A DNA stretch of 53,334 nt from assembly GCA_938091905.1 (NCBI GenBank), contig CALKOM010000035.1, forward strand, positions 1-53,334, read 5' to 3'. This stretch comes from an uncultured Verrucomicrobiales bacterium (GTDB lineage: Bacteria; Verrucomicrobiota; Verrucomicrobiia; Verrucomicrobiales; DEV007). The notes beneath the pieces are model-generated. The model ran no database searches. It was given only the letters and a program-made list of their open reading frames with translations, and was not told where the DNA came from. The position numbers were made by a program, and so were the translations under genes. This document shows positions 1 to 36,494 of the stretch, piece by piece; positions within the stretch are counted from its first letter, which is position 1; each line of letters opens with the position of its first letter.

Positions 1-1362
1 AACTATCTCTATCATCAAAAGGACGGCGGCAAGTTTGACCTGGTGTCTGGCTTGAAGCCGCCAACGATGCAGGTCGCCAAAGCAGGCTGGGGCTGGGGCG
101 GGCAGTTCGCCGATTTCAACAACGACGGCTGGCTGGATATCTATTCGCTCAACGGCTACTTCACCGCGCCCAAGGAGGTGGCGACCGAGGTCGACTTGTG
201 AAGTAACCTCTGGCGCACGTTCGTGCGCACCGATGAAAGCGTCTCCCGCAAGAGTTTCCGCTTTTCCGACGAATGGAAACGGAGCGAAGGCGGTGCGGAA
301 CTGACCCCAGAGATCGACAGTCGTCTGGCCGGTGGCGAAATGCGTAACGGTCGCTATGTCGCCCATTCGCTCAGCGGCAATGAGCGCAACAAGTTGTTCA
401 TGAACAGCGCGGGCAAGTCGTTTAGTGACATGTCAGGAATTTCGGGGCTGGACAACATTGGGGACGGTCGTGGTTTCGCGCTCTTCGACTACAATCGCGA
501 CGGTCGGCAGGACATCGCCCTGGTGAATGCTAACGCGCCGTTATTCAATCTCTACCGCAATGCGATGAAGAATCACGGCAATGTCATTGCTGTTAGGTTC
601 GAAGGTAGCAACAACGCTGCTTCTCCATCAAAGGCACAGACCAACCGTGACGGTTTCGGTGCCACGGTCATTGCTCAAGTCACCAACGGCCCGACCCTGA
701 AACGCGAGCACCGTTGTGGCGAAGGATTCTCCGCCCAGAATAGCAACACGATGCTGATCGGTATTGGCAGTGCTGAAAGTGTCTCACGTCTAACAGTGCG
801 TTGGCCATCGTCAAGGCAGGTCTACACATTACAGAATGTCGCCGCAGGAGCCCTGGTCACGGTGCGCGAAAGTGCTAGCAAACCATTCGACGTGAGCACC
901 TATCTCAAGTCGCTGCCAGTGGCTGATCGCCAAACAACCGAACGACCAACGTTTGCGGTCGCCGCACGTGACATTGGCGCAAAGCCAGGCACGAAACTCC
1001 GCCTCTACGTCACCACGGCCACCTGGTGCGAAGCCTGTCTTCGCCACTTGCCGCAAATCAATGCCATGACCAAACAGCTTGCTGCAGATGGCATCGAAAT
1101 CTTCGCCATCCCAATCGATCCAGAAGACAACCAAGCCAAGCTTGAGAAGTATCTTGCGAAATGGAAGCCAGCCTATCAGCTGATGAGCGACTTGCCGGTC
1201 ACGGAGCGTGCTACAGTAGGCGCTTTCCTCGCCAAACACACGGGAACCGAAGGCCCACCTCTTCCATCATCGGTCGTCACGGACGCTGAGGGTAAGGCAT
1301 TGTTAGTTACTGCTGGGATCCCGACTGTTTCAGATCTGCGGCGTTTGTTGGATCGAGAGTAG
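1..1362 (+). CDS. 5'-partial FG-GAP repeat / ASPIC-UnbV (CRTAC1-like) protein with C-terminal TlpA-like thioredoxin domain; in-frame UGA at 199-201 (candidate selenocysteine)
   Basis: Frame 1 is open from base 1 (NYLYHQKD...GWGWGGQFADFNNDGWLDIYSLNGYFTAPKEVATEVDL) to TGA 199-201 and continues in the same frame (SNLWRTFV...) into the listed ORF 223..1362. It has FG-GAP motifs DFNNDGWLD and DYNRDGRQD, an ASPIC/UnbV-like segment (NRDGFGATV...GEGFSAQN...VRWPS), and WCEAC plus a downstream LP motif of a Trx fold. Confidence 0.8.
213..228 (+). promoter_or_regulatory. Candidate bacterial SECIS hairpin
   Basis: GCGCAC-GTTC-GTGCGC forms a perfect 6-bp stem starting 11 nt after the UGA (199-201), with G then U as the first loop bases. 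Confidence 0.65.
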
Positions 1363-1607
1363 CGTCGCCGCGCCCGTGCTGTGTGAAACTTCCGATGAAG
1401 ATGGCCAAATGGTACACGAGGTCAAGGCAACACAGGAAAAGAGTAGAGCTCTGAGACGTTAAAAGGCATTCCCAATTTTTAACGTAATGTTAGACTGGTA
1501 TTCGATATTTCGCGTCGTTTTGGATAACAATCAAGGGCATCGATAAGTTGCTAGGATCTCTTATTAAAGCTCTGTTAGTTGTTGCTCCGTGACGTTGAAG
1601 GGTGCTT

Positions 1608-4600
1608 CTACTTCGCGGGCGAGAACTTAAAGTAGTCAATATCGCCGATGCTGTTCGAGGGGCCATTCTCGTCCATGATCGCGCGGATGGTGTGGATGCC
1701 TTTCTTGAGTTGGACACCTTTATGCGAGATGGTTTTGAGAATGGTCCAGCCGCCTGTGTCCGGGATGCGAATGGGCCCGGTGAGATCTTCGCCCTCAATT
1801 TCAAGGTGAAACAAGCCGCCCTGTTTGTCCGAGGCCACGGGCATGGTGATCTGATAGACTCCATCCTTGGCTACTTCAACCGTGTAGTGCAGCCACTCAC
1901 CCTTTCTCGTCCAGCCGATGCCGTGACCATTGGAGGCGTCGTCTCGCTTCTCGATATCGACCTGCGTGTTCTTCCGATAGTCGGTACCCTGGTTCTGTGG
2001 ATCGTTGTCATGATAGGCTAACTCAGCGGGTCCCTCGTCGTAGTGCTCGGCTTCGATGGTGCCTGGAATGGCGTGTGGCTTGCCTCCATAAGGGCCCGGC
2101 TTGGGAGCGACCTCGGTGCCTACATGGATAACTGACCAGTCGATGCCATCCTCGATCGGGCCGCTCTCTTTGGGGATGAGCCGAATGGTTCTGAGATCGA
2201 TCAAGGATCCTGCTTGAAAAGGGCCATCGCTCTTAGCGACCAGCCTATGAGTGCCTGCGACCAGGTTAAGGCTTCCCACCTGACCCCAGCGATAGTCGTC
2301 CCAAGTGCCTGTAGCCGGGACATCGGCACTGAGGGTCTTGTTGGCGACGGCGAAGAGGATGCGCCCGTCGTCGCTGCCAGCCTGGAGGGCCCAGTCGACC
2401 CAGAGGTCAAAGTCGCCGTCTTCGCTAAGGTGAAAGGTCCATTCGGCGCGATCCCGTTCGCTGCTCCAGAAACCGAGGTTTCGATAGCGCTGCTCAAAGA
2501 GGATGTTTGGGCCGTAGACTTCGGCGACTGAGGCTGGAAGCGTGACGGTGCTGTCGTTGGCCTGAGACATGAGCTTTGGTTCGTTGTTCTCAAACTTCTT
2601 TCGTGGTTCACCGGCGACTTGCAAGTAGGCGAGAAGATCGGTCATGGCGCTTACGGAAATCGACGCTTCAAGTCCCTCTGGCATGAGTGAGAATCCCATC
2701 GATTTGAGTGAGGCCAAGTCGGTGCGGGGTACTTGGTGACGCACGCCATCGATCCCGACAAGCGTGATGGACGCGCTGGTTTCCTCGACCAAGGCACCTG
2801 CCAGGGTTCTCTCATCCTTGATGGTGGCGACGAACTGCATCCAGTTCTCTTGAACCGATTGATTGGGATCGAGAATCGCCGTGAGGTAAGTTTGAGGGGT
2901 ACGCGTTGTGAGGGCGGCTATGTCAGGGCCGATGGCGTTGCCAATCCCGTCCAGGACATGGCAAGCAGCACAGTGGGTGGCGAAGACTTCGCGCCCTTTT
3001 TGCCGGTCACCCGCGATGGAAAGCGCGCTCGTGTAACGTTGGATGACCTCCGCACGATTGCGATTGGTTGCTCCGCCTAGCAGTGTCTCTGCTTGCTTCC
3101 GAATGGCTTCGTTCTCGTGGCGAAGCAGTCGCTGCCTTCTGGTCGCGTCAAGGGAGGCTCGCAGTTCACGATTCACCGCGAGTTCAGCAAAGAAGTTGGG
3201 CAGCTGATCTTCTCGTTTCAAGAAGCCGTCTACTAACGCTGATCGAACTTTAGGTCCATATTTGGGCCAATCAGCGAGCAATTGCCTGGTCATCGTGGGG
3301 TCATTCCCGTTGAGGAGCGCCTGGACGGCGGCAATTTGCAGCTCAACAGGCGTGCTCAGATCGAGGAGTTTCGTCAGTCGACTCCCATCGATTTCAGGAA
3401 ACTTATGTCCTGATGTCAGGAACGCCACCGAGGCGAGGCGATTTTCCAATGAGGCCCGCGAATCATCGATCGCCGTTCGCGCCGCCGCGAGCATGGGAGC
3501 CATTTCCTCTTTGAGTGACGCGAGGTTGTCGACGGTTGCCAGGATCTTGGAGGCGACCTCATATTGCCAGGCTTGGTAAGCGTCGTTGGCGTCTGCTTTC
3601 GCAACTCGAGCAAGAAGACGCGGCACGAGACGCCGGGCATCACTTCCCAAGAGTTCCATTAAGGCATTGGTGAGAGCCGCGGTGCTTGGCGTTCGCTCAG
3701 CCTCGAGCACGGTGAGGAGGACTTCATCGGGGAAACGAGCCGCAGACGTGAGGGCCGCCGCGCGAAGATAGGGGCGTTTCGCTTGAACCAAGAGAAAGGT
3801 TGCCAGGGCTTTGCCGGCTCGCGGATCGTTCCAGGAACCGAGAGACAGCGCCGCTTGTCGTTGCACGTGAGCGTCGTCGTCTTGGAGAAGATGCAGCGCG
3901 AGAAGCCCGAGGCGTTCTTCCTGACCAATGAGCCGTTCTCCCACACGCAGGGCATGAAGGCGCACGCCTGGATGGGAATCGTTGAGACCTGCTTGCACGT
4001 CGTCTGCGGTCAGCGTGTTGGTGTCTGCTAGGGCGCTCAGAGCTTGTAGCCGTGCCTGCGGCAGGGTGCTGGCGAGGACCTGACGCAGGGACGCCGTCGC
4101 CTCGCCCTGCTTGGCATCGTCCAACCAGGTGAGCATCATGTGCGCGGTATCGCGCTGCCACCCGTTTGGCGAATCTAGGGCTTTGGCGAGGACCGCTGGT
4201 TTCAGTCCTGCGAGTTTGACTGGGGTTCTTAGCGTCTGCCCCTTGGGATGGATTTTATAAATGCGTCCCCGATCTTCTCCTGCGCGGAGGCGACCATCGG
4301 CAATCATTTCGCGCTCGAGACGATCATCGATCCATTCAGGATGCTCGATGACGAGTCGGTAAAGATCCGCTACATAAAGTGCTCCGTCAGGACCCGTGCG
4401 GAGTGCGGTTGGGCGAAACCAGGAATCGCGACTGCGGAGAAACTCGCTTTGCGATTCGTCGGCCGCGCGCCTCGTTTGCATGAGGACACCATTCCATTCA
4501 ATGACATCGCGATGGATACAATTGTGAACCGGGCAGGAGAAGTAGACTGACGGTTCAATAAGATTATCAAAGAGTTGATCGCGATAAAACGTGTACCCGC

Positions 4601-7262
4601 AGCCTGAGGTGAGTTTGCCAGGCGATCCGGCTGGCGGCGGCACGTAACCCTCCCAATGACTCAACACTTGGCTGAGAGGAAAGAGATCAATCACGCCATG
4701 CAAACTCTGCTTGGCCGAAGGTTGGGCGACCTTGGGGGCGCGTTTCACATCGTGATCTTCAAGAGCGATCTGCCATCCAAAGGAGTTGTTGCCCGCGATC
4801 CAGTTTCCCCAGTCATCACGATTTCGCCCATGCTGCGTCATGCCCGTGGCGTGTTCGATTTCGCCAGTGTCAGGACGGATACGTAAGTCAAAGCCACCTC
4901 CGAGATCTAACGCTTTGCCCGTCTTGGTGGATCGAATGGCTCCACCACTATCGCCATTGGCGACATAGATCCAACCATCGAGCCCCCAGGCCAAGCCGTT
5001 GCCTCGGTGCTGTTCATTGCCACGGCCAAAGCCTTCGTAAAGAACCGTTCTTTCGTCTGCGACGCCGTCGCCTGTCGTGTCACAGAGAAACCAGATGCAC
5101 GGCGGGGCCACGGCAAGCACGCCATCACGCCAGGGGAGAACGGTATTGGACGTTTCCAAGCCATCGGCAAACACGGTCCGTCTATCATAGGCGCCATCCT
5201 CATCGGTATCTGTGAGGGCGACCACGCGTGAGCCTGGTTTGCCCGCATGATCCAGCCCATTCGGATAACAGGCGAACTCAGCAATCCAGAGTGTTCCGTC
5301 AGGACCCCAAGCGACATCCACCGGATCCATGACGAGGGGTTCTGCCGCCACCAATGCAATCTCAAAGCCGGGGCGCGTTTCCATGGAACGCAATGAGGCT
5401 TGAGGCGAACGCGGTTGACTCACGTGATCACCCATCAGATCGGCAAAGCTTCGTTGATCAATGTGATGGGGGAGGAGAGCCCCCGTGTCTTCGTTCTGCC
5501 AATAGAGATGGCCTCGCTTGATCCACGCCCCATTGTTCGTTCCATTCTTGCGGACAATGGCAGGAATTACTCGGCGATCACGGGAATGCTCTTCGTTCTC
5601 ACGCGTGCCGCTTACACCTTGCTTCGACCAGCCTTCTTCCATACTGGCAAACAGCCAGGTGCTAAAGGAATCTCCGTCCGAGTGAATGATATCTAGATTG
5701 CCGTCCTGGTCGAGGTCGGCGAAGCGCAGACCAGCGTCAGCGCCATCGTTGGTCACGATGGCCGTGCCCTCGGGGAGAGCGAAGGGAAGCTTCTTCCAAC
5801 CATCCTCACTTCTTTCAAAAGCCACAGAATGCCCTGTCATCCCAACGACTAATTCACAGATCCCATCGCCGTTGAGATCGAGCAGTCGGGCTCCACCATC
5901 GGCTCCATTTGTCTGGGGCGCTATCTTTTCAGAACGACCGAGCGACTTTTCATAAATCCATTCCTGGCCATCAAATCTCCAACCCATGACCGCGGCGTCA
6001 TGAATGGCAATCATACCCGCCAGACCGCTCTCATCGAAGATTCCAAAGCGGACGTTCCCATCAATGCGCCATGGAAACGAGCTTTCTTTCCAATTGCTGG
6101 TGGAGGGATCCCAAATCCGCGTGAGCTTGGCATTCGCATTGCCAATCACAACGTCCATGTAGCCATCTGCATTGAGATCGAGGAGGCGCACGCCATTGTC
6201 CTCACCGTTCTCGTCCCGCAGTGGATGGCCCCCTAGCAGATTCTTCACCATGAGGTCGTGCAGTTCGGGCATGTTCAGAAATTTGACCTTCTTACCGTGC
6301 GTATGATCCGCATGGTCCACCACTTCGACCATCTGATCATTGCGCATCCATTCGCCGGCATGGAAACACAGCGACACCGCACCGCGCTTGGCCACGGTGG
6401 CATCGATCGCCGCCTTGTAATCAGCGATCATGATAGGATTCTGAGCTCCGTAGAGTGCCTGACCGGTGTAATCGTTCGGATAGACAAAGGGCAATTCCAA
6501 GATCTTGTTCCCAATGACATAGGGGTAAGGATAGTCTTCAAGATAATTGACAAACCCCGTCATGAGATAGCGTGAGAATCGGTTCGCCCCGCCCATGTTC
6601 GGATCAAAGAGCGCCTTGGGCAGTTCAGGATCCTCCGTGGTAAAGACCATCCCCACACTGGTGCTCATGGACATGAAATGGCCCTTAGGAGACACGCCAT
6701 TGAGAATCTCTGCATAAGCTCTTGGGCTTGGCGTGTTCTGCCCATCCATGCACCCAAACCGAAAACCAACTGAACGATTGTTAGGAATTTGAGCTAACAA
6801 ATCAACGCAACCATGGTAATCGATCACAGCCCTGCGGAAACGGTGCCGTTGCAAGAGCGGGCAGGGATGCGTTATGGTATGCGTCTCCAGGGAAACGCCC
6901 TGCTGCAAGAACCACTGCATGTTCGGATGCGCTGGCTCAGGTTGATTGCACGTGATGCTAACGGGACCGCGCCCATCAATGTCCTGCAGACGGTCAATGA
7001 TTGGAGAGAGGTAATTTCTAAAATGCTGACCGTCCCCTGACATGTCATCAATTGCCAAGACAATGGCCGCTTCTACCCCCATTTCCCCGATCCATTGCGG
7101 CGTGATGAGCTTCGCCGATCCGCGATCCATCAGCCACGGGTTGTTTGGATCGTCGAGATAGGCCAGGCGATTCCCGACTGAGACCTCTCCCTGTGTCGAC
7201 TCCAGAAGGGGTAGGAAGCTTATTCCAAGGAGGAGGAAGGTACGAACGTCGAAGAGCTTCAT
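1608..7262 (-). CDS. Large secreted multidomain protein: polysaccharide-deacetylase-like domain, FG-GAP repeats, PVC-type dehydrogenase propeller, HEAT-like repeats, cytochrome c (CAACH) and C-terminal CBM6/35-like domains
   Basis: 1884 aa ORF with a signal peptide; LAIDD...HTITHP; DLNADGYMD, DLNGDGICE and DLDQDGNLD; AAEPLVMDPVDVAWGPDG...GPDGALYVADLYR; CAACH...GPDI...SLMPEGLE; IPGTIEAEHYDEG...GEWLHYTV. Confidence 0.85.
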   Translation of the reverse strand: MKLFDVRTFLLLGISFLPLLESTQGEVSVGNRLAYLDDPNNPWLMDRGSAKLITPQWIGEMGVEAAIVLAIDDMSGDGQHFRNYLSPIIDRLQDIDGRGPVSITCNQPEPAHPNMQWFLQQGVSLETHTITHPCPLLQRHRFRRAVIDYHGCVDLLAQIPNNRSVGFRFGCMDGQNTPSPRAYAEILNGVSPKGHFMSMSTSVGMVFTTEDPELPKALFDPNMGGANRFSRYLMTGFVNYLEDYPYPYVIGNKILELPFVYPNDYTGQALYGAQNPIMIADYKAAIDATVAKRGAVSLCFHAGEWMRNDQMVEVVDHADHTHGKKVKFLNMPELHDLMVKNLLGGHPLRDENGEDNGVRLLDLNADGYMDVVIGNANAKLTRIWDPSTSNWKESSFPWRIDGNVRFGIFDESGLAGMIAIHDAAVMGWRFDGQEWIYEKSLGRSEKIAPQTNGADGGARLLDLNGDGICELVVGMTGHSVAFERSEDGWKKLPFALPEGTAIVTNDGADAGLRFADLDQDGNLDIIHSDGDSFSTWLFASMEEGWSKQGVSGTRENEEHSRDRRVIPAIVRKNGTNNGAWIKRGHLYWQNEDTGALLPHHIDQRSFADLMGDHVSQPRSPQASLRSMETRPGFEIALVAAEPLVMDPVDVAWGPDGTLWIAEFACYPNGLDHAGKPGSRVVALTDTDEDGAYDRRTVFADGLETSNTVLPWRDGVLAVAPPCIWFLCDTTGDGVADERTVLYEGFGRGNEQHRGNGLAWGLDGWIYVANGDSGGAIRSTKTGKALDLGGGFDLRIRPDTGEIEHATGMTQHGRNRDDWGNWIAGNNSFGWQIALEDHDVKRAPKVAQPSAKQSLHGVIDLFPLSQVLSHWEGYVPPPAGSPGKLTSGCGYTFYRDQLFDNLIEPSVYFSCPVHNCIHRDVIEWNGVLMQTRRAADESQSEFLRSRDSWFRPTALRTGPDGALYVADLYRLVIEHPEWIDDRLEREMIADGRLRAGEDRGRIYKIHPKGQTLRTPVKLAGLKPAVLAKALDSPNGWQRDTAHMMLTWLDDAKQGEATASLRQVLASTLPQARLQALSALADTNTLTADDVQAGLNDSHPGVRLHALRVGERLIGQEERLGLLALHLLQDDDAHVQRQAALSLGSWNDPRAGKALATFLLVQAKRPYLRAAALTSAARFPDEVLLTVLEAERTPSTAALTNALMELLGSDARRLVPRLLARVAKADANDAYQAWQYEVASKILATVDNLASLKEEMAPMLAAARTAIDDSRASLENRLASVAFLTSGHKFPEIDGSRLTKLLDLSTPVELQIAAVQALLNGNDPTMTRQLLADWPKYGPKVRSALVDGFLKREDQLPNFFAELAVNRELRASLDATRRQRLLRHENEAIRKQAETLLGGATNRNRAEVIQRYTSALSIAGDRQKGREVFATHCAACHVLDGIGNAIGPDIAALTTRTPQTYLTAILDPNQSVQENWMQFVATIKDERTLAGALVEETSASITLVGIDGVRHQVPRTDLASLKSMGFSLMPEGLEASISVSAMTDLLAYLQVAGEPRKKFENNEPKLMSQANDSTVTLPASVAEVYGPNILFEQRYRNLGFWSSERDRAEWTFHLSEDGDFDLWVDWALQAGSDDGRILFAVANKTLSADVPATGTWDDYRWGQVGSLNLVAGTHRLVAKSDGPFQAGSLIDLRTIRLIPKESGPIEDGIDWSVIHVGTEVAPKPGPYGGKPHAIPGTIEAEHYDEGPAELAYHDNDPQNQGTDYRKNTQVDIEKRDDASNGHGIGWTRKGEWLHYTVEVAKDGVYQITMPVASDKQGGLFHLEIEGEDLTGPIRIPDTGGWTILKTISHKGVQLKKGIHTIRAIMDENGPSNSIGDIDYFKFSPAK

Positions 7263-10584: not shown

Positions 10585-10676
10585 CAGCCATCGCTGAGCC
10601 CGCTGATCGCATCGTGGACCCCCACCTCGACAGCCATCGCTGAGCCCGCTGATCGCACCGTGGCCCCCCACCTAGA
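10585..10676. repeat. 46-bp tandem duplication
   Basis: cagccatcgctgagcccgctgatcgcatcgtggacccccacctcga (10585-10630) is followed by a near-identical copy (10631-10676). Confidence 0.95.
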
Positions 10677-10848
10677 AGAACGACGCGGGCAAGGACGGCC
10701 CCAACAGTAGTTGGTGTGATTGCTTCATGTCCCTCCACTAAACGGCAAGGGAGAGATTTGTTGCTCCTAACTGAGAATACCACCAAGTCTCAGCCTTGGC
10801 TGTGAAGTTTTCGTAATGTCAAGACGGTCAATAGAAGCGCTAGGTCTA

Positions 10849-21566: not shown

Positions 21567-21693
21567 CTCACGCAGAGACGCGGAGGGTTGGTTGTGTGTG
21601 GGGTTCGCACCGAGGCAACGAGGTTTGGTTGTGTGTGGGTAGTAGGAACGGCCAGGGATGACCGTCCTACGAAGTGGTTGTGCTTTGTTTGGG
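21567..21693. repeat. Composite intergenic repeat cluster
   Basis: Contains ctcacgcagagacgc (21567-21581), gaggKttggttgtgtgtggg twice (21583-21602 and 21620-21639), a GTAGG..ACGG...CCGT-CCTAC palindrome (21642-21670) and a degenerate third GT-rich copy. Confidence 0.7.
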
Positions 21694-21712
21694 TTTGGAC
21701 GTTGGTGATGAC

Positions 21713-22492
21713 ATGGTTCAGCCTTCTGCTCTTGCTGTGGTGGCGCATCCGGATGACATCGAGTTCATGGCGGCGGGGACGCTATTGCTACTGAAAGAGT
21801 CTGGGTATGGAATTCATTACATGACGGTGGCGAGTGGGAATTGTGGGAGTATGACGATGGATGCGGCGACGACGCGTGAGGTGCGGCGGAAGGAGAGCCA
21901 GGAGGCGGCGGCGTATCTGGGGGCGACTTGGCATGCGCCGCTTTGTGATGATTTGGAGATTGTTTATAGTGTGGAGTTGGTGAGGCGATTGGCAGCGGTG
22001 ATTCGGTTGGTGAATCCTGCGATTGTGCTGACGCATTCGCCTCAGGATTACATGGAGGATCACATGGCAACCTCGCGGCTTGCGGTGACGGCGGCGTTTG
22101 CCAAGCACATGCCTAACTTTGACACATCGCCCCCACAGGCGTCTGCGCCAGGTGACGTTTCGATTTATCACGGGATGCCGCATGGGCTTTGTGATCAATT
22201 ACGTCAGCCGGTCGTTCCTGAAATGTTTGTGGAAACGACGAATGTCCATGCGGCGAAGCGAGAGGCGTTGGCACTGCATGCGAGTCAGAAGGCATGGCTC
22301 GACCAAAGTCAGGGCATGGATTCATACCTGGTGGCTTTGGATGAGATGTCGGCGCAGGTGGGTAAGTTGCATGGGACGTTTGCACATGCCGAGGGGTGGC
22401 GTCGGCATTTACATCTTGGGTTCAGTACGGAAGATGCCGATCCTTTGGCCAAGGCGCTTGGTCAGCGTTGCCAAAGGGGGATTGACCAATGA
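21713..22492 (+). CDS. PIG-L / LmbE family N-deacetylase
   Basis: AHPDDIE, RRKE, THSPQDYMEDH and HASQ; likely start ATG at 21713. Confidence 0.9.
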   Translation: MVQPSALAVVAHPDDIEFMAAGTLLLLKESGYGIHYMTVASGNCGSMTMDAATTREVRRKESQEAAAYLGATWHAPLCDDLEIVYSVELVRRLAAVIRLVNPAIVLTHSPQDYMEDHMATSRLAVTAAFAKHMPNFDTSPPQASAPGDVSIYHGMPHGLCDQLRQPVVPEMFVETTNVHAAKREALALHASQKAWLDQSQGMDSYLVALDEMSAQVGKLHGTFAHAEGWRRHLHLGFSTEDADPLAKALGQRCQRGIDQ

Positions 22493-22516
22493 CTCGAGAT
22501 AGCTGCAGGCTGAGGC

Positions 22517-23443
22517 ATGGCTAGAAAGCTCAGTACGATTGCGCCGGATTGGTGGGATTACACGACCCTGGACGATGAGATCATTCGCGATGCGGCGGCG
22601 TTGGCGCTTGAGGATCTGGCGCAGCTTTCGCGGCCGGGGTTTCGCGTGGTTTTGTATGACACGCTGGAGGATTTTTATCTTGCGGAAGCGCTAGAGTACA
22701 TCGAGGCGTGGAGACAAGCGACGGCGGATAATCCGGTGGGGATTTGTGGTCCGATTGGACCGACAGAACAGCTGCCACTGGTGGCGCGCTTGGCGAATGC
22801 GCTGGAGTTGGATCTTTCCAATGCGCATTTCTGGGGCATGGACGAGTGGCTTGGGGACGACGGTGAGGCGGTGCCAACCTCGCATCCGCTTTCCTTTGAG
22901 CGGGCGGACCGTGAGTTGTGTTTTGACAAAATCACCAACGGCTTGCCCGAGGCGAATCTTCATTTCCCGACGGCTGATACAGGCGTCTACCAGAAGTCGT
23001 GGGATGGAGTGCGTTGTGCCGTGATGCAGGGAGGGCAAGGGGATATCAAGCACTGGGCTTTCAACGATCCTCCACGTAGAGAGGGTGCCTACGCGGAGTC
23101 GCCGCCAAGTCCTGCCGAGTATCGGAAGTTGTCGACGCGTGTGGTGGAGTTGCATCCGATCACGTTGGCGCAGAATGCGCGGACATCGGGTGGAGGAAAT
23201 ATTACGCTGGTACCGCAGAAGGCGGTGACCGTAGGGCCGGTGGAAACTTGGCAGGCGGAGAAGGTGTCCATCTGGCAGGCGGGCACGCATGACAATCCGT
23301 TTGGGCAGCGGCTGACGGCGTTCATGATCTCGAAGGGCTTGGCGGATGCGGCAGTACCGATGTCGCTCTTGGCGGATCATCCGAATGTGCAGTTCAACTA
23401 CTTCCGTGGTGGGGTGGGGAGTTGTTCGGTGGAGATGCATTAG
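22517..23443 (+). CDS. Glucosamine-6-phosphate isomerase/deaminase-like (NagB-fold) protein
   Basis: FWGMDEW, HPLSF and HWAFNDP are divergent versions of the NagB DEY, HPxS and HxxFNEP motifs. Confidence 0.7.
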
Positions 23444-23479
23444 CTCGCAATGGGTGGGGAGAGTCGTGTAGATTGGGGC

Positions 23480-26400
23480 ATGCGTGTTGTCTTGCTTCTG
23501 CTTCTCACACTTTCCGTAGTCACAGCTGAATTTCGGGCGGGTGCGAGTGCGGTCGATATTTCGCCACCGAAGCTTCCCGTCATTCAGAATGGTGGATTCA
23601 TAGAAAGCACGCTGAGTATCGTGCTGGATACGTTGCACGCGCGGGCGATTGTGTTGGATGATGGGAATAGCATGATTGCTATAGTGGTAGTGGATAGCTG
23701 CATGATGCCGCGAGAGTTGATCGACAAGGCGAAGGATCTGGCGGTGGCTGAAACGGGCATTCGCAAAGATCGCATCTTGGTGTCCGCGACGCATACACAC
23801 TCGGCTCCGAGTGTGATGAATCATACGCTGGGGGCGCGTGGGGATCCTCACTACATAGCGTTTCTGCCAGGGAAGATTGCGGAAGCGATTCGGCTGGCGA
23901 AGGCGAATCTCCAGCCGGCGCAGGTCGGTTCGGCCAAGATTGATGCGAGTGACCTCACGGCGAATCGTCGTTGGATCATGCACCCTGACAAGTTGTCGAA
24001 AGATCCGTTTGGCGCGCTGACGGTCAGGGCGAACATGCATCCGGGTCACAACAATCCGAATGCGATGGGGCCTTCCGGGCCGATCGATCCCTGGCTGTCG
24101 ATGCTCAGTATCCAAACGCGGGAGGGCAAGCCCCTGGCTCTTCTGGCCAACTTTTCGATGCATTATTTCAGTGGGCACGCAGGTGTGTCGTCAGATTACT
24201 TTGGCAGGTTTGCTAAGGAGATGGGGAAACGACTTGCCCCTGATGATTCGACCTTTGTAGCGGCTCTTTCGCAGGGCACAAGTGGGGATCTCTTCTGGGC
24301 GGATTACAGCCGTGACAAGCGTCGGGCGTGGAATCTTGAGGAATACACCAATCGACTGGCGGACAAGGCAATGACAGCGGTGGAGACGATAAGCCATCGA
24401 TCAGACCTACCGCTGAGGATGGCGGAGAAGCGGATAGAACTCGCACATCGGCAGCCGAGTGAGGAGCGTTTGCAATGGGCACAGAAACTTGTCGATGAAA
24501 TGGGTGATCGTGTGGTGGCAAAGAATCGGCCGGAGGTGTATGCGCAACAAGCGTTCTACCTCAAAGAGAACCCTTCTCGTGAAGTCGTGCTCCAATCGAT
24601 TGGCATTGGCGACCTGACGATCAATGCCCTGCCAAACGAAGTCTATGCCATCACGGGTCTGAAACTGAAGGCAGGCCAAGGTGAGCGGACAGTCTTCAAT
24701 GTATCTTTGGCGAATGGGGCTTCTGGCTACATCCCTCCGAAAGAACAGCATGCGTTGGGAGGTTACACCACGTGGCCGGCCCGCACGGCGGGACTTGAAG
24801 TGGGGGCTGAGAGGAGGATTGTGGAAGAGCTAGGCTTGCTTGCGCAACGTCCGCTTGATATGGTTGAACCTCCATCGATGTACTCGAAAGCGATTGGCGC
24901 TTCTCCGTCCCTCATCGATCAGTGGCGGATGGGTGAACTCGACTTAGGGGATGGCTTCTCATCCGGTGTGGCTCCTGGGGTGCCGGGCGTTTCCTCGTCA
25001 GCTTTTGGATCTGACTATCACAATCGGTGTGTCCACTTTGCGGGCGGCAAATTTACGCACACTCGGGAGTCTCCCACGGGAGACTATTCGCTGTCCTTGT
25101 GGTTTTGGAATGCGCTGCCTCTGGATGTGCGCGAGACTACGGGAATTCTCTTTGCCAGTGGCGGTGATCAAGTTTCGATTAGTCGGCAAGGTAAGCTGGT
25201 CGCTGGGTCACTTGATGGAGAGTCCGTGATCGATTCAAAGCGTTGGTATCATCTAGCGTTCGTGCGAAAAGGCGATGCGGTTAAAGTCTTCTTGAATGGC
25301 AGGCTGGAGATTGAAGGAGCGGGGCCCGCGCGGCAGGGTGGTCCTCTCTATTTCGCAGGCGACCGCGAGAATACGGCGAATTTCGAGGGAAAGATGGATG
25401 AGGTCGCTCTCTTTGATCGGGCCCTGACGGAAGCCAAAGTTTCTGAGCAGGTGCGGGTGGCGCAACTTCCCGAGTCGCCACCGCTTTCGCCCAAGCAGTC
25501 GATGAAGTCGATTCATGTAAGGGATGGCTTTGAGTTGGAGCTAGTTGCTGCTGAGCCGTTTGTTAGGGATCCTGTGGCCATCGATTGGGATGCGGACGGG
25601 AAGCTTTGGGTGTCGGAGATGGCGGACTATCCCTACGGCATCGATGGCAAGGGCAAAGCCGGTGGCCGCGTGCGCTGGTTGGAGGATGCGGATGCCAATG
25701 GAGTGTTTGAGAAATCTGTCTTGTTTCTAGATGGGCTTTCGTTTCCGACGAGCGTGATGCCTTGGCGTGATGGCGTGCTGATCACGGCGGCGCCTGACAT
25801 TCTCTTTGCGCGGGATACGGATGGCGATGGTCGCGCCGATGAGCAGGAGGTGTTGTTCACGGGATTCATCGAAGGGAACCAGCAACTGCGCGTGAACTCG
25901 CTGCGTTGGGGATTGGATGGGTGGATCTACGCGGCGAGTGGGGGGCACCATGCGGGCTTTGGGGTGAAGACGGAGATTACGAGCACGAAGACGGGCAAGA
26001 AGACTGCCCTTGGCAGTCGTGATTTTAAGTTTCGACCTGATAGCGGGGAGCTGGAAGCGCTTTCAGGTCCCTCACAGTATGGTCGTGTGCGCGATGACTG
26101 GGGGAACTGGTTTGGAGTGCAGAATTCGTATCCGCTCTGGCATTATGTCCTTCCGGATCACTATCTGAGGCGCAATGCTTTCCACCCGGCTCGGGATCCG
26201 CGTCGGCAATTGCGTGGGCAAGCGCCTCGGGTGTTTCCTAACAAGCCTCCTCAGAAACGTTTTCATGGGTTTGATCACGCCGGGCGTTACACCTCGGCTT
26301 GTGGGATTTCTATTTATCGGGATGTCTTGTTGTTTCCGTCTAGTCCGGAAAGGATGCATGCGTTTACTTGTGAGCCGTTTCACAATGTGGTGCAGCACCA

Positions 26401-28174
26401 TGTGTTAGATCGGGATGGCGTGACCTTCACAGCAGCGCGCGGCGATGATGGTGAGAAGGATTTCTTTGCTTCGGCGGATCGCTGGTGTCGGCCGGTAAGT
26501 ACGCGTACGGGGCCGGATGGGGCGCTTTATGTAGTCGACATGTATCGTTACATGATCGAGCACCCGGATTGGTTGCCTCAAGAAGGGCAAAATGAGCTTC
26601 GACCGTTTTATCGGCATGGAGAGGATCGCGGTAGGATCTATCGGATCATAGCGAAAGAAAGAGAAACCTTTGCTCGGATAGATTTCGATGATTTGGTTCG
26701 GGACATGGGAAGCTCGAATGGGCATGTTCGGGACACGGCACATCGATTGCTGATGGAGCGTGGTGATCGGAAGGCGGCGGAGGAGGTCGTCAAGACTCAG
26801 TGGATTCCTATGGCGAGGTTTCAGGCTTACAGCGCGTTGCAATCGTTGCCGGGAACGTTTCCTTGGCTAAGTGCTGCGGTGGATGACGATCCTAACGTGC
26901 GTCGACTTGCCGCACACGCTCCTGAGATGCTTGAGCGACTTTGTGAAGATGATGATGTGCGTGTGCGTTTGCAAGTGGCGCTGACGGCGGGCTCTGTTCC
27001 TGGTGAGGAGGCGGCGGCGGCTCTCATCAGTGTGGCGAAGCAAGATGGCAGTGATCCATTTGTCCATGCGGCGGTGATGAGTTCAGCAGACCTGCACTTC
27101 GACGCTTTGGTGGCCGCGTTGATCGATGATGAGTGCTTTGCGAAGGGGTTAGCTGTCATGGCCGCGCGGCGAGGCGGTGAGGGTTCCGAAGCGATGATAG
27201 AGACGTTCGTTTCTGATTCAGCTTCCAGCATGGAATTGTGCGCGGCGTGGTTGGACCATCTTGAGGAGCCCATTGTGGACCCTCGGTTGGAGGAGCTGTT
27301 TGGCAGGGCGCGCACGTTGGTCCAAGACACGACGACGGATGAAGCCCATCGGGTGGCGGCGATAGGGCTTTTGGCGCGTGGAGAAGGAGATGATGCGCCT
27401 GTGTTAGCGGCTTTGCTTAGCCCAATACATCCGCTCGCGTTGCAATTAGCGGCAACGGCTCGGTTGCGTACGCTGGGAGATGGAGCTTCGTTTGGGTATT
27501 TGCGAGAAGCGTTGTCGGCGAGTGAGCCGACGACGAGAGAGGCGATTCTGGCAGCGTTGCTTTCGCGGAAAGACTGGTGTGCTCGCCTGCTTGATGCGGT
27601 TGAGGAGGTGCCTGCATACGGTCGTCTGTTAGATGCGTCGCGTCGGCAACAGTTGAGTGGTCATCCAGACAAAGCTGTTTCTCAGCGCGCCAAGACGTTG
27701 TTTGCACAGTCGACGAGTAGTCGCTTGGACGTGGTGGCGGCGCTTCGTCCGGCACTGGCGTTGGATGGGGATACGGCGTCTGGGAAGGTGATCTTTGAAG
27801 CGCGCTGTGCTCTGTGTCATCAGGTTGGGGACGTGGGCAAGGCGATTGGGCCGGACTTGCGTTCGATCACGGACAAGTCGGCTGCTGGTTTGTTAGCGGC
27901 GATTGTCGATCCGAGTCGGAATGTGGAACCTAAGTATTTAAGCTATTTGCTAGAGTTAGAGGGTGGAGAGACGTTGTATGGACTGATCCGAGCGGAGACG
28001 GGAAATAGTCTGATTGTCGTGCAGCTGGATGGGAATGAGCGCACGATTCTTCGGTCAGCGGTGAAGACGCTTAAGAGTACGGACCGGTCGCTTATGCCTG
28101 ATGGCTTGGAAGCGGATCTTGGGGTGCAGGAGATGGTGGATCTGATTGAGTATGTGCAGTCGTTGAGGGAATGA
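23480..28174 (+). CDS. Secreted neutral-ceramidase-like plus LamG plus PVC-type heme-binding CxxCH protein
   Basis: Signal peptide MRVVLLLL; SATHTHSAP, NFSMHY, GTSGD and LANGASGYIP; LamG WYHLAFV...GKMDEVALFDRALT; AAEPFVRDPVAIDW; GPDGALYVVDMYR; CALCH...GPDL...SLMPDGLE. Confidence 0.88.
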   Translation: MRVVLLLLLTLSVVTAEFRAGASAVDISPPKLPVIQNGGFIESTLSIVLDTLHARAIVLDDGNSMIAIVVVDSCMMPRELIDKAKDLAVAETGIRKDRILVSATHTHSAPSVMNHTLGARGDPHYIAFLPGKIAEAIRLAKANLQPAQVGSAKIDASDLTANRRWIMHPDKLSKDPFGALTVRANMHPGHNNPNAMGPSGPIDPWLSMLSIQTREGKPLALLANFSMHYFSGHAGVSSDYFGRFAKEMGKRLAPDDSTFVAALSQGTSGDLFWADYSRDKRRAWNLEEYTNRLADKAMTAVETISHRSDLPLRMAEKRIELAHRQPSEERLQWAQKLVDEMGDRVVAKNRPEVYAQQAFYLKENPSREVVLQSIGIGDLTINALPNEVYAITGLKLKAGQGERTVFNVSLANGASGYIPPKEQHALGGYTTWPARTAGLEVGAERRIVEELGLLAQRPLDMVEPPSMYSKAIGASPSLIDQWRMGELDLGDGFSSGVAPGVPGVSSSAFGSDYHNRCVHFAGGKFTHTRESPTGDYSLSLWFWNALPLDVRETTGILFASGGDQVSISRQGKLVAGSLDGESVIDSKRWYHLAFVRKGDAVKVFLNGRLEIEGAGPARQGGPLYFAGDRENTANFEGKMDEVALFDRALTEAKVSEQVRVAQLPESPPLSPKQSMKSIHVRDGFELELVAAEPFVRDPVAIDWDADGKLWVSEMADYPYGIDGKGKAGGRVRWLEDADANGVFEKSVLFLDGLSFPTSVMPWRDGVLITAAPDILFARDTDGDGRADEQEVLFTGFIEGNQQLRVNSLRWGLDGWIYAASGGHHAGFGVKTEITSTKTGKKTALGSRDFKFRPDSGELEALSGPSQYGRVRDDWGNWFGVQNSYPLWHYVLPDHYLRRNAFHPARDPRRQLRGQAPRVFPNKPPQKRFHGFDHAGRYTSACGISIYRDVLLFPSSPERMHAFTCEPFHNVVQHHVLDRDGVTFTAARGDDGEKDFFASADRWCRPVSTRTGPDGALYVVDMYRYMIEHPDWLPQEGQNELRPFYRHGEDRGRIYRIIAKERETFARIDFDDLVRDMGSSNGHVRDTAHRLLMERGDRKAAEEVVKTQWIPMARFQAYSALQSLPGTFPWLSAAVDDDPNVRRLAAHAPEMLERLCEDDDVRVRLQVALTAGSVPGEEAAAALISVAKQDGSDPFVHAAVMSSADLHFDALVAALIDDECFAKGLAVMAARRGGEGSEAMIETFVSDSASSMELCAAWLDHLEEPIVDPRLEELFGRARTLVQDTTTDEAHRVAAIGLLARGEGDDAPVLAALLSPIHPLALQLAATARLRTLGDGASFGYLREALSASEPTTREAILAALLSRKDWCARLLDAVEEVPAYGRLLDASRRQQLSGHPDKAVSQRAKTLFAQSTSSRLDVVAALRPALALDGDTASGKVIFEARCALCHQVGDVGKAIGPDLRSITDKSAAGLLAAIVDPSRNVEPKYLSYLLELEGGETLYGLIRAETGNSLIVVQLDGNERTILRSAVKTLKSTDRSLMPDGLEADLGVQEMVDLIEYVQSLRE

Positions 28175-29480: not shown

Positions 29481-32400
29481 ATGCCGACTCCACTTGTTGC
29501 GTGTTGTTATTCATTGCGGGCTTCTTTCTCGTCCAAAGCGCCTCTGCTCAGCGGCATGTCATCGGATGGCAAACCTTCGAAAACGCCACCGCTGGCAACA
29601 ACAATTCGGGGATTCAAGACGACACACCTGACACGAATTCCACGTATGATCCCACACCGCGGGGATCGAATGTGGGAAGGCGTTACCTGAGTGGCAACGT
29701 CGGGCGCAATGCGTCGGCTGATGGCTGGGGTGGGTTTGGCCAGGCTAGCAACAACGACTTTCTAAACGGTCCCACTTTCGGTGAGGCGCTGACGATCACG
29801 AATGCCGCGCTTGCCGACGGCTCTCCAGGACGTCGGATCGGGCCGTTTGGGAATCCGCCGCCGAATGGCGAAGTGAACGAGGGAACGAGCTCGTGGAAGT
29901 TCGCGGAGGCTGGGGGGATCAACCCGTTGAGAGGCGACATCTCAATCACGAACCACAGTGACTACCATTTCGGGCTGGAGCACATCCACTTTGATGCGCG
30001 TGGGTTGGCCAACCCGGCGACTTCACCCAACACGTTGGCGCTTCGATACCTAGCGGACTCCGGGGAACTGATCAATGTCACCACGGGATCCGAAGTCGAG
30101 GATGGCACACGGTTGTATGGGCATACTTGGGCTGCCAGAGGCACTGAGAATGTTTCCCAGAGCATCGAAGCCGCCATCGGTTCCACCACGCGCATTGCGC
30201 CAGGTCAAAAGGCCTCGTTTCGGTTCGTCTGGTCGGGGAATGCCGGGGCCGGACATGCTCAGATTGATAACATTGCCTTTTCCGGAACCTTTCAGGATCA
30301 GGACGACGGATTCATGGCCATCGATCCCACGCAAGATCCTCGTCCGATCGCGGACGGCCCTAATATCATTGTTATTATCCCCGATGATCAGCGATGGGAT
30401 GCGACGAGTTACATGCAGGAGACGATTGAGGCGAGCGGACGTAGAGCGCGTTTCCCTTGGCTTACCGACCCAACGCAAAGGACCCCAAACATGGACCGGC
30501 TATCGAGCGAGGGAGTGCATTTCAACAACGCTTTTGTGGTCTATTCCATTTGCTCTCCTTCAGGGGCCACGATGCTGACGGGCCAGTACCCTCACATTCA
30601 CCAAGTGACTGACAACCACACTGACTTCCCTGCCTCGGCCACGACCTATGCTACGTTGTTACGAGACGAGGGCTATGCGACGGGATACTTTGGGAAATGG
30701 CACATGGGCAACCAGAAAGCACGCCCCGGATTTGATACCGCCGTCACGATTAAAGGGCAGGGCACTTACTTTAATACGGAGTTCTTTGATGAAGTTGGTG
30801 ACTTGCTTTTTACTTCGTCAGAGAGCGATTGGGTCGATGACGTTTCGACGCAGCATGCAGAAGATTTCATTTCGGCTCAGCACGCTGCGGAGCGTCCCTT
30901 TCTAGCGGTTCTCGGGTTCAAGACGCCCCACCAGCCTTGGCAGCCGCCGGCCCGCAGCACAGACCTGTTCTCGACGGACACGGCTGTTGCCGTTCCTAAC
31001 CTCACGGTTCCGCCGCCTTTTGCCCCGGATGCGAATGAGGGGGCGAGTATTGGTGAGCTGCGAAGCTACATGCGGACGGTGGTCGGCATCGATCAGAATG
31101 TCGGCGATGTGTTAGCGCTTCTGGACGATTTAGAGATCGCCGAGGACACCGCAGTTTTCTTCATCAGTGATAACGGATTCTTCCGCGGCGAACATCGGCT
31201 TGGGGACAAGCGTTCTGCCTACGAAGAGAGCCTTCGAATTCCCTTCATGATCCGCTATCCCAAGGTGCAGCCTGGCCCTCTGCTTGTGAATCAGATGGCG
31301 CTGAACTTGGATGTGGTAGTGACGGTTTTAGATATTGCTGGAGTTCCTATTCCCTCGAGCATGCAAGGGCGCAGCCTACTTCCGTTTCTTACCGGTGCCA
31401 CTCCAGGGGATTGGCGAGATTCTTTCCTGTTTTCCTATAACATTGATCCGGAATTTCCCATGGCGGCTGTAGTTCCCCATATCGGGTTGCGGCGTTCAGA
31501 TGGTCTTAAGATCGGTAACTACTCAGACGAACCCGGCTGGAACGAACTCTATGATACCAGTGTAGGCGCCGACCCGTACGAGATCATTAACCAATTTACT
31601 TCCGCTTCTCACCCAGGCGAACGTGCTTCTTTGACGGCTGAACTGGTCGGCACTGTGGAGGAGTTCGGGTTCCTCAACGTATCGGATTCCTTTGCGAACC
31701 GGCAGGGAGGCTCAATCACCATGCAGGTGGGAGACGCGTCCCTCTTTCGGATCGAGAAATCACCCGGTTTATTGAGCTGGCAGACGTCCGGGACTATCGA
31801 GGGCGGGGGAACTCCAACGACACTTAGCCTCACCAACGCTGGCTTCACCAGCAGCGAGACCGTCGAGGGTGACTCCGTGGACTATGGATTGGCAGAGGGG
31901 CCACCGGTGACTGCGATCCAAGGCTTCAGTACTTTGCGAACCGGTTCCACGTCTTCTGCTGGCGGACGGAATGCTGTTTTCGTGTTGGAACTGCCGACGG
32001 TGACCGCTCCGCTGAAGATCGCTCTAGCGGAACTAAAGTGACCGTGGTTCGGACGTTTGCGCAATGGGATGCGGATCTGTGGATACTCGGAATTAAGGAT
32101 GACTCCGGCCCCATACTCGAGTATAGCGAATCTCCCAGTGGCAATCCAGAAGTGGTAAAGCTAGAAGATGCGATCTTTGATTATACGACGAGCAACCGTG
32201 GGGAAACCGTGACCTCCAATCCGGTCAGCGGATTGACTCAATACTTGAATTCATTCTACGAAGCCAATCCATCCTATGCAGGCGGCAAGTACCTCTTCCT
32301 GCGGATCAATCTGGATGCCGACATCGGCGTCAACGAGCAGCGTTACGCAATTTCAGCGACTGAGAGCCCGACAGCGAGTGAACGACCCAAGTTAAACTTG

Positions 32401-33360: not shown

Positions 33361-34800
33361 TCAATCGTCCTCTGGCCAGCCTGCGCTGTTGTCGGTAAGC
33401 TCGTCAGGGTTCTGAGTGACCGTAGGGTGTAGTTCATAGGGGTCTGGAAAGGCGACCATACGATCTGCCCAGCGGACGCAGTCCCAGTCAATGATGTAGT
33501 TTTCATCTAAAGGGTCAATCTGTCTCATGAACCGGGAACGCGCGAGAGCTCGGGTGTCCGGAGGCGGCTCTGTTAGGCATCGCTTGACCGCCGCTTCAAG
33601 GTTTAGCGACCAATGGCCATCTTTAGCGAGCGGGTGGGCAAGGCTGCGCTCTGGGGAAATGTGGTGGTATTCTAAATCCTGAGCTTGGAGCCAGTCGTTG
33701 TTCAGATCGATTCGCTCGGCTTCGCAGAAGTGTTGGAAGAGGTAGCGCTTGGTGACCCAATCGAGGATGCCGACCATGCCGGTAGGGTCATTGCTAGCGA
33801 AGGCCTCGTTGGCTCGCTTCCATAGATCCAGAAGGGCATCGGTTTCGGTGTCGCGCCCCGTGAAGTGTTGAGCGGCTCGTTCGCGATAGATTTCTAACAC
33901 GTCAACCGCATTGCAGGTTTCAGCGGGGTTCATAAATACCTGCCAGGGGCCTTCGGCTTGGTAGGATATCTGTTTTAGCGTGCTCACGGGTTCGTGTAGG
34001 CGGAGCATCGGTAAGTCGTCGATCTCTAAGAGGTCGAGAATAAGAGCCGTGGTGCCGATTTTAAGAAAGGCTGCTCCTGGTAGTACATTTGTGTCGCCGT
34101 GGAGTAGGTGCAGACGCCGATAGAGGGTAGGATCGGCGAGGGGTTCGTCACGTGTGTTGATGATCGCCCGGTTCCCCTGGACCCACCTGAAGAAATCGTT
34201 CTCGACGTAGTCTGCTCGTTGAGTGATTTGGAACCCATCGAAGTTGTCGAGTAGAGGCTCGCGTTCTTGGCGCATGAGTTGCCGCTGAGTTTCTAGCCCG
34301 CCCACACGGCCTGCCCCTGTGTAGAGGCTGCGGAGTGTGAGAAAGGTGAGCAATGAAAAGATGGCTTCGTCGGAGGAAACGGCTTGTCGATCAAGGGAGT
34401 AGTTCTCGTGACATCCAAAGGTTGCTCCCGTGTAGTGGTCGATGTTGTTGCGGATGATACTGACAGTGTCGTCGAGTTCCAACTCGTGGAGCGCTTGAGC
34501 AAGCAGGTGATCATTCGCCCGATCATAGTGCACGACCTCAAGGAAACTGGAACACTCAGGCGTGCACATCTCCAGATGTCCCATGTCTTCATACATGCGA
34601 CCACCATTGAATAGAAAGCCGCCGTTGCCGGGTGGTTCGTCCCAGTCACGGTGATGAACATCGATTAATCCATGGCGCTGGTTCTCAAAAAACCAGTCGC
34701 GCAGACGACCGATCACTTGATGCATCGGCAGGTTATCCTCGACTAGGCAACCATACTCGGTTTCCAGACCAATGAGACGCCTGCGCGACGAGTTAGGCAT
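33361..34800 (-). CDS. pafA: Pup/UBact-protein ligase (PafA family)
   Basis: GLETEYG, GGFLFNGGRMYEDMGHLE..TPE, GCHENY, TQRAD, INTRDEPLADP..YRRLH and DLEYH; last gene of the proteasome operon. Confidence 0.93.
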   Translation of the reverse strand: MPNSSRRRLIGLETEYGCLVEDNLPMHQVIGRLRDWFFENQRHGLIDVHHRDWDEPPGNGGFLFNGGRMYEDMGHLEMCTPECSSFLEVVHYDRANDHLLAQALHELELDDTVSIIRNNIDHYTGATFGCHENYSLDRQAVSSDEAIFSLLTFLTLRSLYTGAGRVGGLETQRQLMRQEREPLLDNFDGFQITQRADYVENDFFRWVQGNRAIINTRDEPLADPTLYRRLHLLHGDTNVLPGAAFLKIGTTALILDLLEIDDLPMLRLHEPVSTLKQISYQAEGPWQVFMNPAETCNAVDVLEIYRERAAQHFTGRDTETDALLDLWKRANEAFASNDPTGMVGILDWVTKRYLFQHFCEAERIDLNNDWLQAQDLEYHHISPERSLAHPLAKDGHWSLNLEAAVKRCLTEPPPDTRALARSRFMRQIDPLDENYIIDWDCVRWADRMVAFPDPYELHPTVTQNPDELTDNSAGWPEDD

Positions 34801-36306: not shown

Positions 36307-36485
36307 TCTCCAGTTCGCTGGCGATAGCGCCGTGCCTGATCGGGATCCACTTTGCGCATGCGCTCGAGCAAATCGTCTGTATTCGGCTTCTCCACCTTGG
36401 GTGTGGATGGTCCCTCCCCTTCGTCATCCCCACCGCCGCCTGGTGCCGGTGCGGGAGGCCGCGTTCTTCTGGCTGATTCAGGCAT
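36303..36485 (-). CDS. ubact: Ubiquitin-like modifier UBact (Pup analogue)
   Basis: 60 aa with a disordered Pro/Gly/acidic N-terminus, then LLERMRKVDPDQARRYRQRTGE ending in R[T/S]G[E/Q]; lies between dop and prcB. Confidence 0.93.
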   Translation of the reverse strand: MPESARRTRPPAPAPGGGGDDEGEGPSTPKVEKPNTDDLLERMRKVDPDQARRYRQRTGE

Positions 36486-36494
36486 GAGAGGACT

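Follow-up and report, generated by a model that had tools for sequence, protein, structure and literature searches.

The window analysed here, a stretch of 53,334 nucleotides (nt) from an uncultured Verrucomicrobiales bacterium (contig CALKOM010000035.1), opens inside a gene whose reading frame is crossed by a UGA codon, the proposed codon for selenocysteine (Sec). Frame 1 of the plus strand is open from base 1 to a TAG stop at 1360-1362, and TGA 199-201 is its sole interruption. The upstream coding part (1-198, plus strand) encodes FG-GAP propeller repeats and ends in the residues ATEVDL; it belongs to the 3′ portion of a gene that continues past the 5′ end of the window. The downstream coding part of the same protein occupies 202-1362 (plus strand). 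Just inside it, at 213-228 (plus strand), lies a hairpin resembling a bacterial Sec insertion sequence (SECIS): arms GCGCAC (213-218) and GTGCGC (223-228) form a stem of six base pairs (bp), GCGCAC/GUGCGC, around the loop GUUC (GTTC in the DNA, 219-222). The stem begins 11 nt after the TGA, and the loop 17 nt after it. Related loci carry a TGA in the same column.

Pfam recognizes FG-GAP_3 in the 453-residue window fragment, followed by UnbV_ASPIC (PF07593; residues 218-286, positions 652-858, plus strand; 47.5 bits against a cut-off of 23.4) and by a thioredoxin fold of the AhpC-TSA/Redoxin type, similar to TlpA and ResA (PF00578; residues 329-432, positions 985-1296, plus strand; 32.6 bits against a cut-off of 26). 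The thioredoxin-fold domain contains the motif WCEAC, a CxxC, whose Cys codons are 1027-1029 and 1036-1038 (plus strand). The first-pass annotation, made from the letters alone, had described an open frame on both sides of the TGA, a hairpin 11 nt behind it and a C-terminal WCEAC thioredoxin-like domain, all on a CRTAC1-like β-propeller scaffold. Each of these features is present: the rest of frame 1 is free of stops to 1360, the hairpin sits where it was drawn, and Pfam recovers the domains.

The complete gene is available from a relative, L001, which is 83% identical. It has 1031 codons, the TGA being codon 645, and encodes a hydrophobic N-terminal segment. An AlphaFold model of the L001 protein, built on 143 sequences, has a mean predicted local distance difference test score of 88.5 and a predicted template modelling (TM) score of 0.89. 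In this model the UGA region folds as one continuous domain, and residue 645 opens a helix (645-654) directly after a strand (639-643). The start of a helix is a position typical of redox-active Cys and Sec residues. The best structural match of the model by Foldseek is murine CRTAC1 (9etn_A; E 1.5e-25, TM score 0.69 on the target), and 9etn is also the sole sequence match in the PDB. By Pfam cut-offs and by fold, the protein belongs with the CRTAC1/ASPIC-UnbV FG-GAP proteins. Pfam places propeller repeats on both sides of the UGA, and the predicted structure runs through it without a break: this is one protein, not two.

A genome search, with one genome per species, identified 75 related loci that are 33-88% identical to the window; the nearest (L001-L005) are metagenome-assembled genomes (MAGs) of Verrucomicrobiales. 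When window residues 21-130 were compared with these loci by tblastn, UGA sites could be located in 72 of the 75; L005, L031 and L054 do not cover the region. Among the 90 matches that cover the site (12 others stop short of it), the codon is TGA in 88 and TGT (Cys) in two, and never TAA, TAG or another sense codon. TGA or Cys codons are what had been predicted for the homologues' DNA, and a UGA column conserved without TAA or TAG is the pattern of a bacterial selenoprotein. Both TGT codons belong to distantly related paralogues, encoded on the opposite strand in L023 and L032. The 72 TGA loci come from Planctomycetota (32), Verrucomicrobiota (31), Acidobacteriota (4), Myxococcota (3) and Binatota (1), with one unplaced; 14 loci contain two or three family genes of the TGA type.

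All 74 complete family genes have one internal TGA only, in the same column, with intact frames on either side. Between the UGA and the GTG codon of the hairpin, Ser is retained in 67 of the 74 and Trp in all of them. Across the 74 complete Sec forms the invariant residues are D643, U645 and W649 (L001 numbering), and no other Cys is universal. Three family genes, in L008, L027 and L028, have lost the frame upstream or downstream of the conserved TGA region; these may be indel assembly errors or decaying paralogues.

The hairpin is conserved along with the codon. A gap-free alignment of 85 distinct 57-nt regions has 87.1% of the cells in the 6-bp stem paired, with changes on both sides in four of the six pairs. 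The covariation score of the stem is 0.213, compared with 0.116 ± 0.010 after shuffling, a value reached by none of 500 shuffles. Shifting the stem partner by one to three columns lowers every measure of pairing and covariation. The covarying hairpin that the first-pass annotation predicted is therein. At pair 25-38, 58 sequences have C-G and 14 have A-U, and none shows a change on one side only; the A-U version alters the encoded peptide from WRTVVR to WSTVVL (Arg to Ser, Arg to Leu). Pairing is therefore maintained at a cost in amino acids. Pair 27-36, in which both bases occupy third codon positions, occurs as C-G, U-G, A-U, U-A and G-C. Codon choice in the loop is skewed as well: of 79 Thr, Ser or Ala codons, 72 supply a G as the first base of the loop (against a background of 30-35% in the same genes), and 66 of 72 loop Val codons are GTC (against 38%). 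By covariation and by synonymous constraint the hairpin is under RNA-level constraint, in a set of sequences that are related and whose peptide itself favours the stem.

The bacterial SECIS consensus of Zhang and Gladyshev, as summarized in section 5 of PMC13188914, comprises a loop of 3-9 nt, a stem of 4 bp or more, a G within the first two loop positions, a distance of 16-37 nt from the UGA and a folding energy of −7.5 kcal/mol or lower. With the 45 nt behind each UGA folded to minimum energy, 75 of the 88 sites satisfy the full consensus. The window is among them, and satisfies every element (GUUC loop, 6 bp, 17 nt, −13.1 kcal/mol). Of 1390 in-frame positions drawn at random from these genes as a control, 222 satisfy it, and so do 4 of 29 sites that follow the family genes' own terminal TGA. 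The loop at consensus-satisfying sites is GGUC in 46 cases and GUUC in 8. A covariance model built on the sites scores 69.4 bits at the window hairpin and, across the loci, has no matches beyond the 88 sites used to build it. One partial match elsewhere in the window (31072-31105, plus strand; 16.6 bits, to the hairpin half of the model only) was rejected as a chance match in a sulfatase open reading frame (ORF), where it encodes YMRTVVGID and has no UGA upstream.

Public protein data hold this family largely in pieces. From a library of representatives clustered at 50% identity the best 150 matches were examined, and 139 of them miss the UGA site; most are C-terminal pieces of 300-420 residues that start at window residues 75-76 or at about residue 120. 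Downstream gene calls begin at GTG 223 or later. Eleven of the best 150 span the site, and the residue could be read in ten: Glu in four, Ser in four, Cys in one (P0143) and Thr in one. The eleventh is a multi-repeat protein of 1774 residues. The N-terminal part of L001, used as a query, gave 85 newly found matches: 46 end exactly at D-L before the site, 36 run through it and have Glu there, and three are unclear. The best 27 are all D-L-ending fragments. Where named, the N-terminal fragments are hypothetical, VCBS repeat-containing or FG-GAP repeat proteins. That gene callers would split this gene into two ORFs had been anticipated, and the D-L-ending N-terminal and GTG-start C-terminal pieces are the two halves.

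Sec forms outnumber the forms that are translated whole. In a FastTree phylogeny of 86 proteins, computed with the columns around the site removed, the non-Sec forms are nested among Sec forms, and at least nine changes of state are needed. The tree is unrooted, and any direction assigned to the changes between Sec and non-Sec would be an inference.

The complete Sec genes also encode candidate partner thiols. Long and extra-long Sec forms all have the C-terminal CxxC (50 of 50) and never a Cys at U+2 (0 of 50). Short Sec forms lack the thioredoxin-like domain altogether (0 of 24), and 20 of the 24 have U-x-C. A candidate resolving thiol, either CxxC or U-x-C, is present in 70 of the 74 complete Sec genes. 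The short U-x-C forms constitute essentially one clade, and therefore few evolutionary events. The Glu forms seldom have CxxC at the corresponding position (5 of 120); there the residues are NxxY in 87 and SxxC in 18, and the rest are scattered.

Long and short genes can also be neighbours. In L037, L042, L068, L070, L073, L034, L071 and L075 a long form adjoins a short U-x-C form, often convergently and with overlapping ends; such pairs occur in Akkermansiaceae and in Verrucomicrobiales MAGs. The arrangement suggests that adjacent long and U-x-C short paralogues work together.

Together, codon conservation, the covarying hairpin and the split gene calls support the central claim of the first-pass annotation: UGA 199-201 is very probably read as Sec, in an exported CRTAC1-like protein, by way of the downstream bacterial SECIS. 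Window 1-1362 would then be the 3′ part of a single gene for an exported protein of about 1030 residues, arranged as an N-terminal membrane anchor or signal, an FG-GAP β-propeller, the ASPIC/UnbV domain and a C-terminal TlpA-like thioredoxin-fold domain. With a ribosome on the UGA, the hairpin 11 nt downstream would recruit SelB carrying Sec-tRNA, and the codon would be decoded as Sec. This residue, the first of a helix just past a strand, may be redox-active. Long forms such as the window protein could use the fused CxxC to regenerate it, and short forms the Cys at U+2 (U-x-C). The CxxC domain, in turn, could draw electrons from an extracytoplasmic reducing pathway of the cell.

A number of observations weigh against Sec at this codon, several of which concern the RNA. 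The window copy of the hairpin does not stand out by itself: the fold of positions 190-270 is no more stable than shuffled sequence (z = −0.30; 66 of 200 shuffles are as good), and Rfam, searched with window 1-1500 at E up to 10, returns no SECIS family and one chance match to a snoRNA. Because the window copy alone folds like its shuffles, the evidence for a hairpin beyond chance rests on comparison. Thirteen of the 88 sites fail the consensus on the minimum-energy fold, most of them through a U-U mismatch that widens the loop to UCGGUCGU. Moreover, if the Arg residues of the peptide W-R-T-x-V-R use CGN codons, this peptide largely fixes four of the six stem pairs. The Glu forms have no need of a SECIS and yet retain the peptide, which is therefore under selection at the protein level too.

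Other such points come from the homologues. A protein-database search for longer homologues listed 120, of 850-1116 residues and about 50% identity, which cover 99-100% of the fragment. All 120 have Glu at the UGA column, in the motif D-L-E-S-N-L-W-R-T, and no full-length form annotated with Sec is among those listed. The uniform outcome is a selection effect, because a gene reaches the database as a long protein only if it lacks the TGA. Nevertheless, the replacements for UGA are mostly Glu, and also Ser or Thr, rather than the usual Cys; Cys occupies the Sec column in P0143 and in the two TGT paralogues, and the other site-spanning homologues have Glu, Ser or Thr. The first-pass annotation had itself named, as signs against Sec, homologues that end at this column with TAA or TAG, or that carry varied non-Cys residues there with no conserved hairpin. 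Varied non-Cys residues are indeed found in translated homologues; in the related TGA loci, TAA and TAG are absent from the column and the hairpin is conserved. Its suggestion that the fused thioredoxin domain serves the Sec has correlative support: CxxC or U-x-C goes with Sec, and CxxC is rare with Glu, yet across independent lineages the association of Sec with CxxC does not reach significance (four pairs, median p 0.5). As to function, a redox role for Sec that draws on the fused CxxC domain is the guess with most support, and about as apt to fail as to hold.

The machinery for Sec, finally, did not come into view. ARAGORN identified no tRNA-Sec in the window and the 75 loci, whose flanks are a sliver of each genome. 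A six-frame scan of the same 1.17 Mb, using an EF-Tu/SelB-type G1 motif, gave no SelB-like GTPase motif in these slivers of genomes, and Pfam found no sel genes among 32 window ORFs. According to the available text of PMC4807772, some marine Planctomycetes have complete gene sets for Sec insertion; no such statement for Verrucomicrobiota emerged from our literature search.

How else might the locus be explained? There is next to no chance that the TGA arose through a mistake in sequencing or assembly, or that a nonsense mutation has left a pseudogene here. The codon does lie 199 bases from the edge of the window, the full-length database homologues have a Glu sense codon at the site, and the relatives in L008, L027 and L028 do show frameshifts. 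Against this stand a same-column TGA at 88 sites in 72 independent loci and five phyla, frames intact on both sides in 74 complete genes, and conservation of the downstream RNA element. Gene callers in effect propose another solution, in which the UGA is a true, conserved stop and a second polypeptide is begun by translational coupling from GTG 223 inside the hairpin; many of the clustered representatives begin at window residues 75-76, and D-L closes 46 of the N-terminal fragments. This is very improbable. The restart codon is GTG in 67 of 85 sequences, and in the other 18 it is a non-start GTT, GTA, GTC, GCG or ACG. The in-frame Ser (67 of 74) and Trp (74 of 74) between UGA and GTG are conserved, the model has one continuous domain with propeller repeats to either side, and an ordinary stop would leave the constant lack of TAA and TAG at the site unexplained.

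A genuine read-through could in principle dispense with selenium, an ordinary tRNA (Trp, Cys, Arg or Gly) decoding the UGA with help from the hairpin. In favour of this, the window and the 75 loci yielded no Sec machinery, and the replacement residues are as varied as Glu, Ser, Thr and Cys. This alternative is improbable, if less so than a split gene: the geometry of the hairpin and its G-G or G-U loop match the SelB-dependent consensus, and 70 of 74 genes combine the UGA with a partner thiol, consistent with a redox-active chalcogen. Moreover, we know of no conserved class of hairpin-driven UGA read-through of comparable kind in bacteria. Genome-wide reassignment of UGA, as in codes 4 and 25, has support from the literature only, the available text of PMC13462651 reporting UGA-to-Trp reassignment in Verrucomicrobiota. 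In the window, however, TGA ends 7 of 28 long ORFs, no other long frame requires read-through of a TGA, and G+C is 55%. TGA also ends 29 of the 74 complete family genes, so that in these genes one UGA is read through and another stops translation on the same mRNA. The locus does not behave like code 4 or code 25, and this explanation can be given virtually no weight.

Decoding of the UGA as Sec would follow a well-known bacterial scheme. As in the E. coli fdhF model, an in-frame UGA is followed directly by an intragenic stem-loop, and UGA is a stop elsewhere; in line with the bacterial consensus, 17 nt separate the UGA from a 4-nt apical loop starting G-G or G-U. The family also resembles known bacterial selenoproteins in its candidate partner thiols (U-x-C or CxxC), and at least one Cys homologue exists. 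The decoding mechanism, then, is a known one, and the unusual aspects lie elsewhere. Unlike known bacterial selenoproteins, this candidate has an FG-GAP propeller and ASPIC/UnbV scaffold, its Sec form is commoner than the forms translated whole, and its replacements are mostly Glu or Ser.

Its protein relatives differ from it in turn. CRTAC1 (9etn) shares the FG-GAP propeller and the UnbV_ASPIC domain but has neither Sec (the column holds Phe, by a weak alignment) nor a fused thioredoxin-fold domain. To our knowledge, no enzymatic role has been described for CRTAC1. The C-terminal domain of the window protein resembles the TlpA and ResA reductases in its thioredoxin fold with W-C-x-x-C, scoring above the Pfam cut-off for AhpC-TSA. 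Its scores against the NCBIfam equivalog and subfamily models are far below cut-off (TlpA, 23.3 against 230; ResA, 25.1 against 170; WAxxUGC, 15.3 against 300), so that what is shared is the general fold and the CxxC only. In the UGC-containing selenoprotein TlpA and the WAxxUGC ResA-like protein (NF041054) Sec belongs to the thioredoxin motif; in the window protein, by contrast, it lies outside that motif, about 275 residues upstream, in the propeller.

Catalogues of selenoproteins appear to lack the family. Among 18950 NCBIfam models, at E of 0.01 or below, no selenoprotein model exceeds its cut-off, and the only one to register is WAxxUGC_long at 15.3 bits; NCBIfam has no model for the propeller selenoprotein family. 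Table 1 of a 2026 review, with 119 prokaryotic selenoprotein families, contains no FG-GAP, VCBS, ASPIC or CRTAC1 entry. The family terms are likewise absent from the available main texts of that review, of BSepDB, of deep-Sep, of the GOS study and of a 2022 review, although supplementary tables (those of deep-Sep and BSepDB, and S9 of PMC4807772) might list members. The available text of a 2016 ISME J study has no mention of the stems Verrucomicrob or Planctomyc, the only terms searched there. Literature searches linking selenoprotein or selenocysteine with FG-GAP, ASPIC, CRTAC1, VCBS or UnbV returned nothing relevant. On sequence evidence, this is a probable new family of selenoproteins, widespread, uncatalogued and decoded by a known mechanism.

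If confirmed, the family would add to the catalogues, in which thioredoxin-fold families predominate, a widespread group of selenoproteins on a different kind of scaffold, common in abundant marine heterotrophs. It would also provide a candidate catalytic residue for the poorly understood CRTAC1/ASPIC family. It also exposes a systematic annotation error, most of the close relatives found being stored as two UGA-cut fragments. Searches that rely on Sec/Cys pairs would tend to overlook the family, because its whole-translated homologues mostly carry Glu or Ser.

A bolder proposal is possible, if doubtful: Sec might be both the original and the prevailing state in a large family of propeller enzymes, mostly extracytoplasmic, of marine Verrucomicrobiota and Planctomycetota, replaced several times by Glu or Ser and not by Cys. 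Were this true, the selenolate, as an anion, would be a nucleophile or a ligand in a type of active site new to selenoenzymes, and a propeller enzyme would be served by its built-in TlpA-like reductase. Both phyla would then be far heavier users of ocean selenium than the catalogues show.

Two results of the wider scans stand apart. In-frame TGA candidates of the UxxC/CxxU type number 301 in the loci, and were set aside since they mostly resemble off-frame noise. On the minus strand of L047, a Planctomycetota MAG, ARAGORN calls a tRNA with anticodon CTA (10639-10715, labelled tRNA-Pyl), which may be a suppressor tRNA or a false call.

The genomic surroundings of the family vary: among 49 flanking ORFs from 18 loci, Pfam annotates no functional partner that the loci have in common. 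One neighbour recurs, in the clade of the window only: a divergently transcribed gene for a secreted protein lies directly upstream of the family gene (in L001, L002, L006, L009, L010, L012 and L025). It encodes one to three copies of a conserved domain, some 200 residues long, that no Pfam family matches. The single-domain form has about 250-350 residues, a multi-domain form is found in L025, and most copies of the protein end in a tail like PEP-CTERM or IPTL-CTERM. On the minus strand, the gene occupies L001 5552-8278; L002 6496-7239 and 7299-8078; L006 6916-7956; L009 7217-8011; L010 7747-8481; L012 7335-8117; and L025 5231-8176. In the window, such a neighbour would fall past the 5′ edge.

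Other parts of the window contain features of their own. At 21674-23443 (plus strand) a PIG-L deacetylase ORF and a 308-residue ORF share a frame and are separated by a TGA, six codons and a second TGA. The covariance model has no SECIS-like match there, and the two are for that reason probably just adjacent genes. A proteasome subunit gene lies between two genes of the Pup-ligase family (PafA/Dop-like) at 33361-38027 (minus strand), forming a pupylation-proteasome cluster. Giant proteins of 1884 and 1574 residues, both with DUF7133 and a cytochrome c domain, are encoded at 1608-7262 (minus strand) and 23450-28174 (plus strand); one of the two has CBM6/CBM35 and an FG-GAP repeat, and the other a ceramidase-like N-terminus and a LamG domain.

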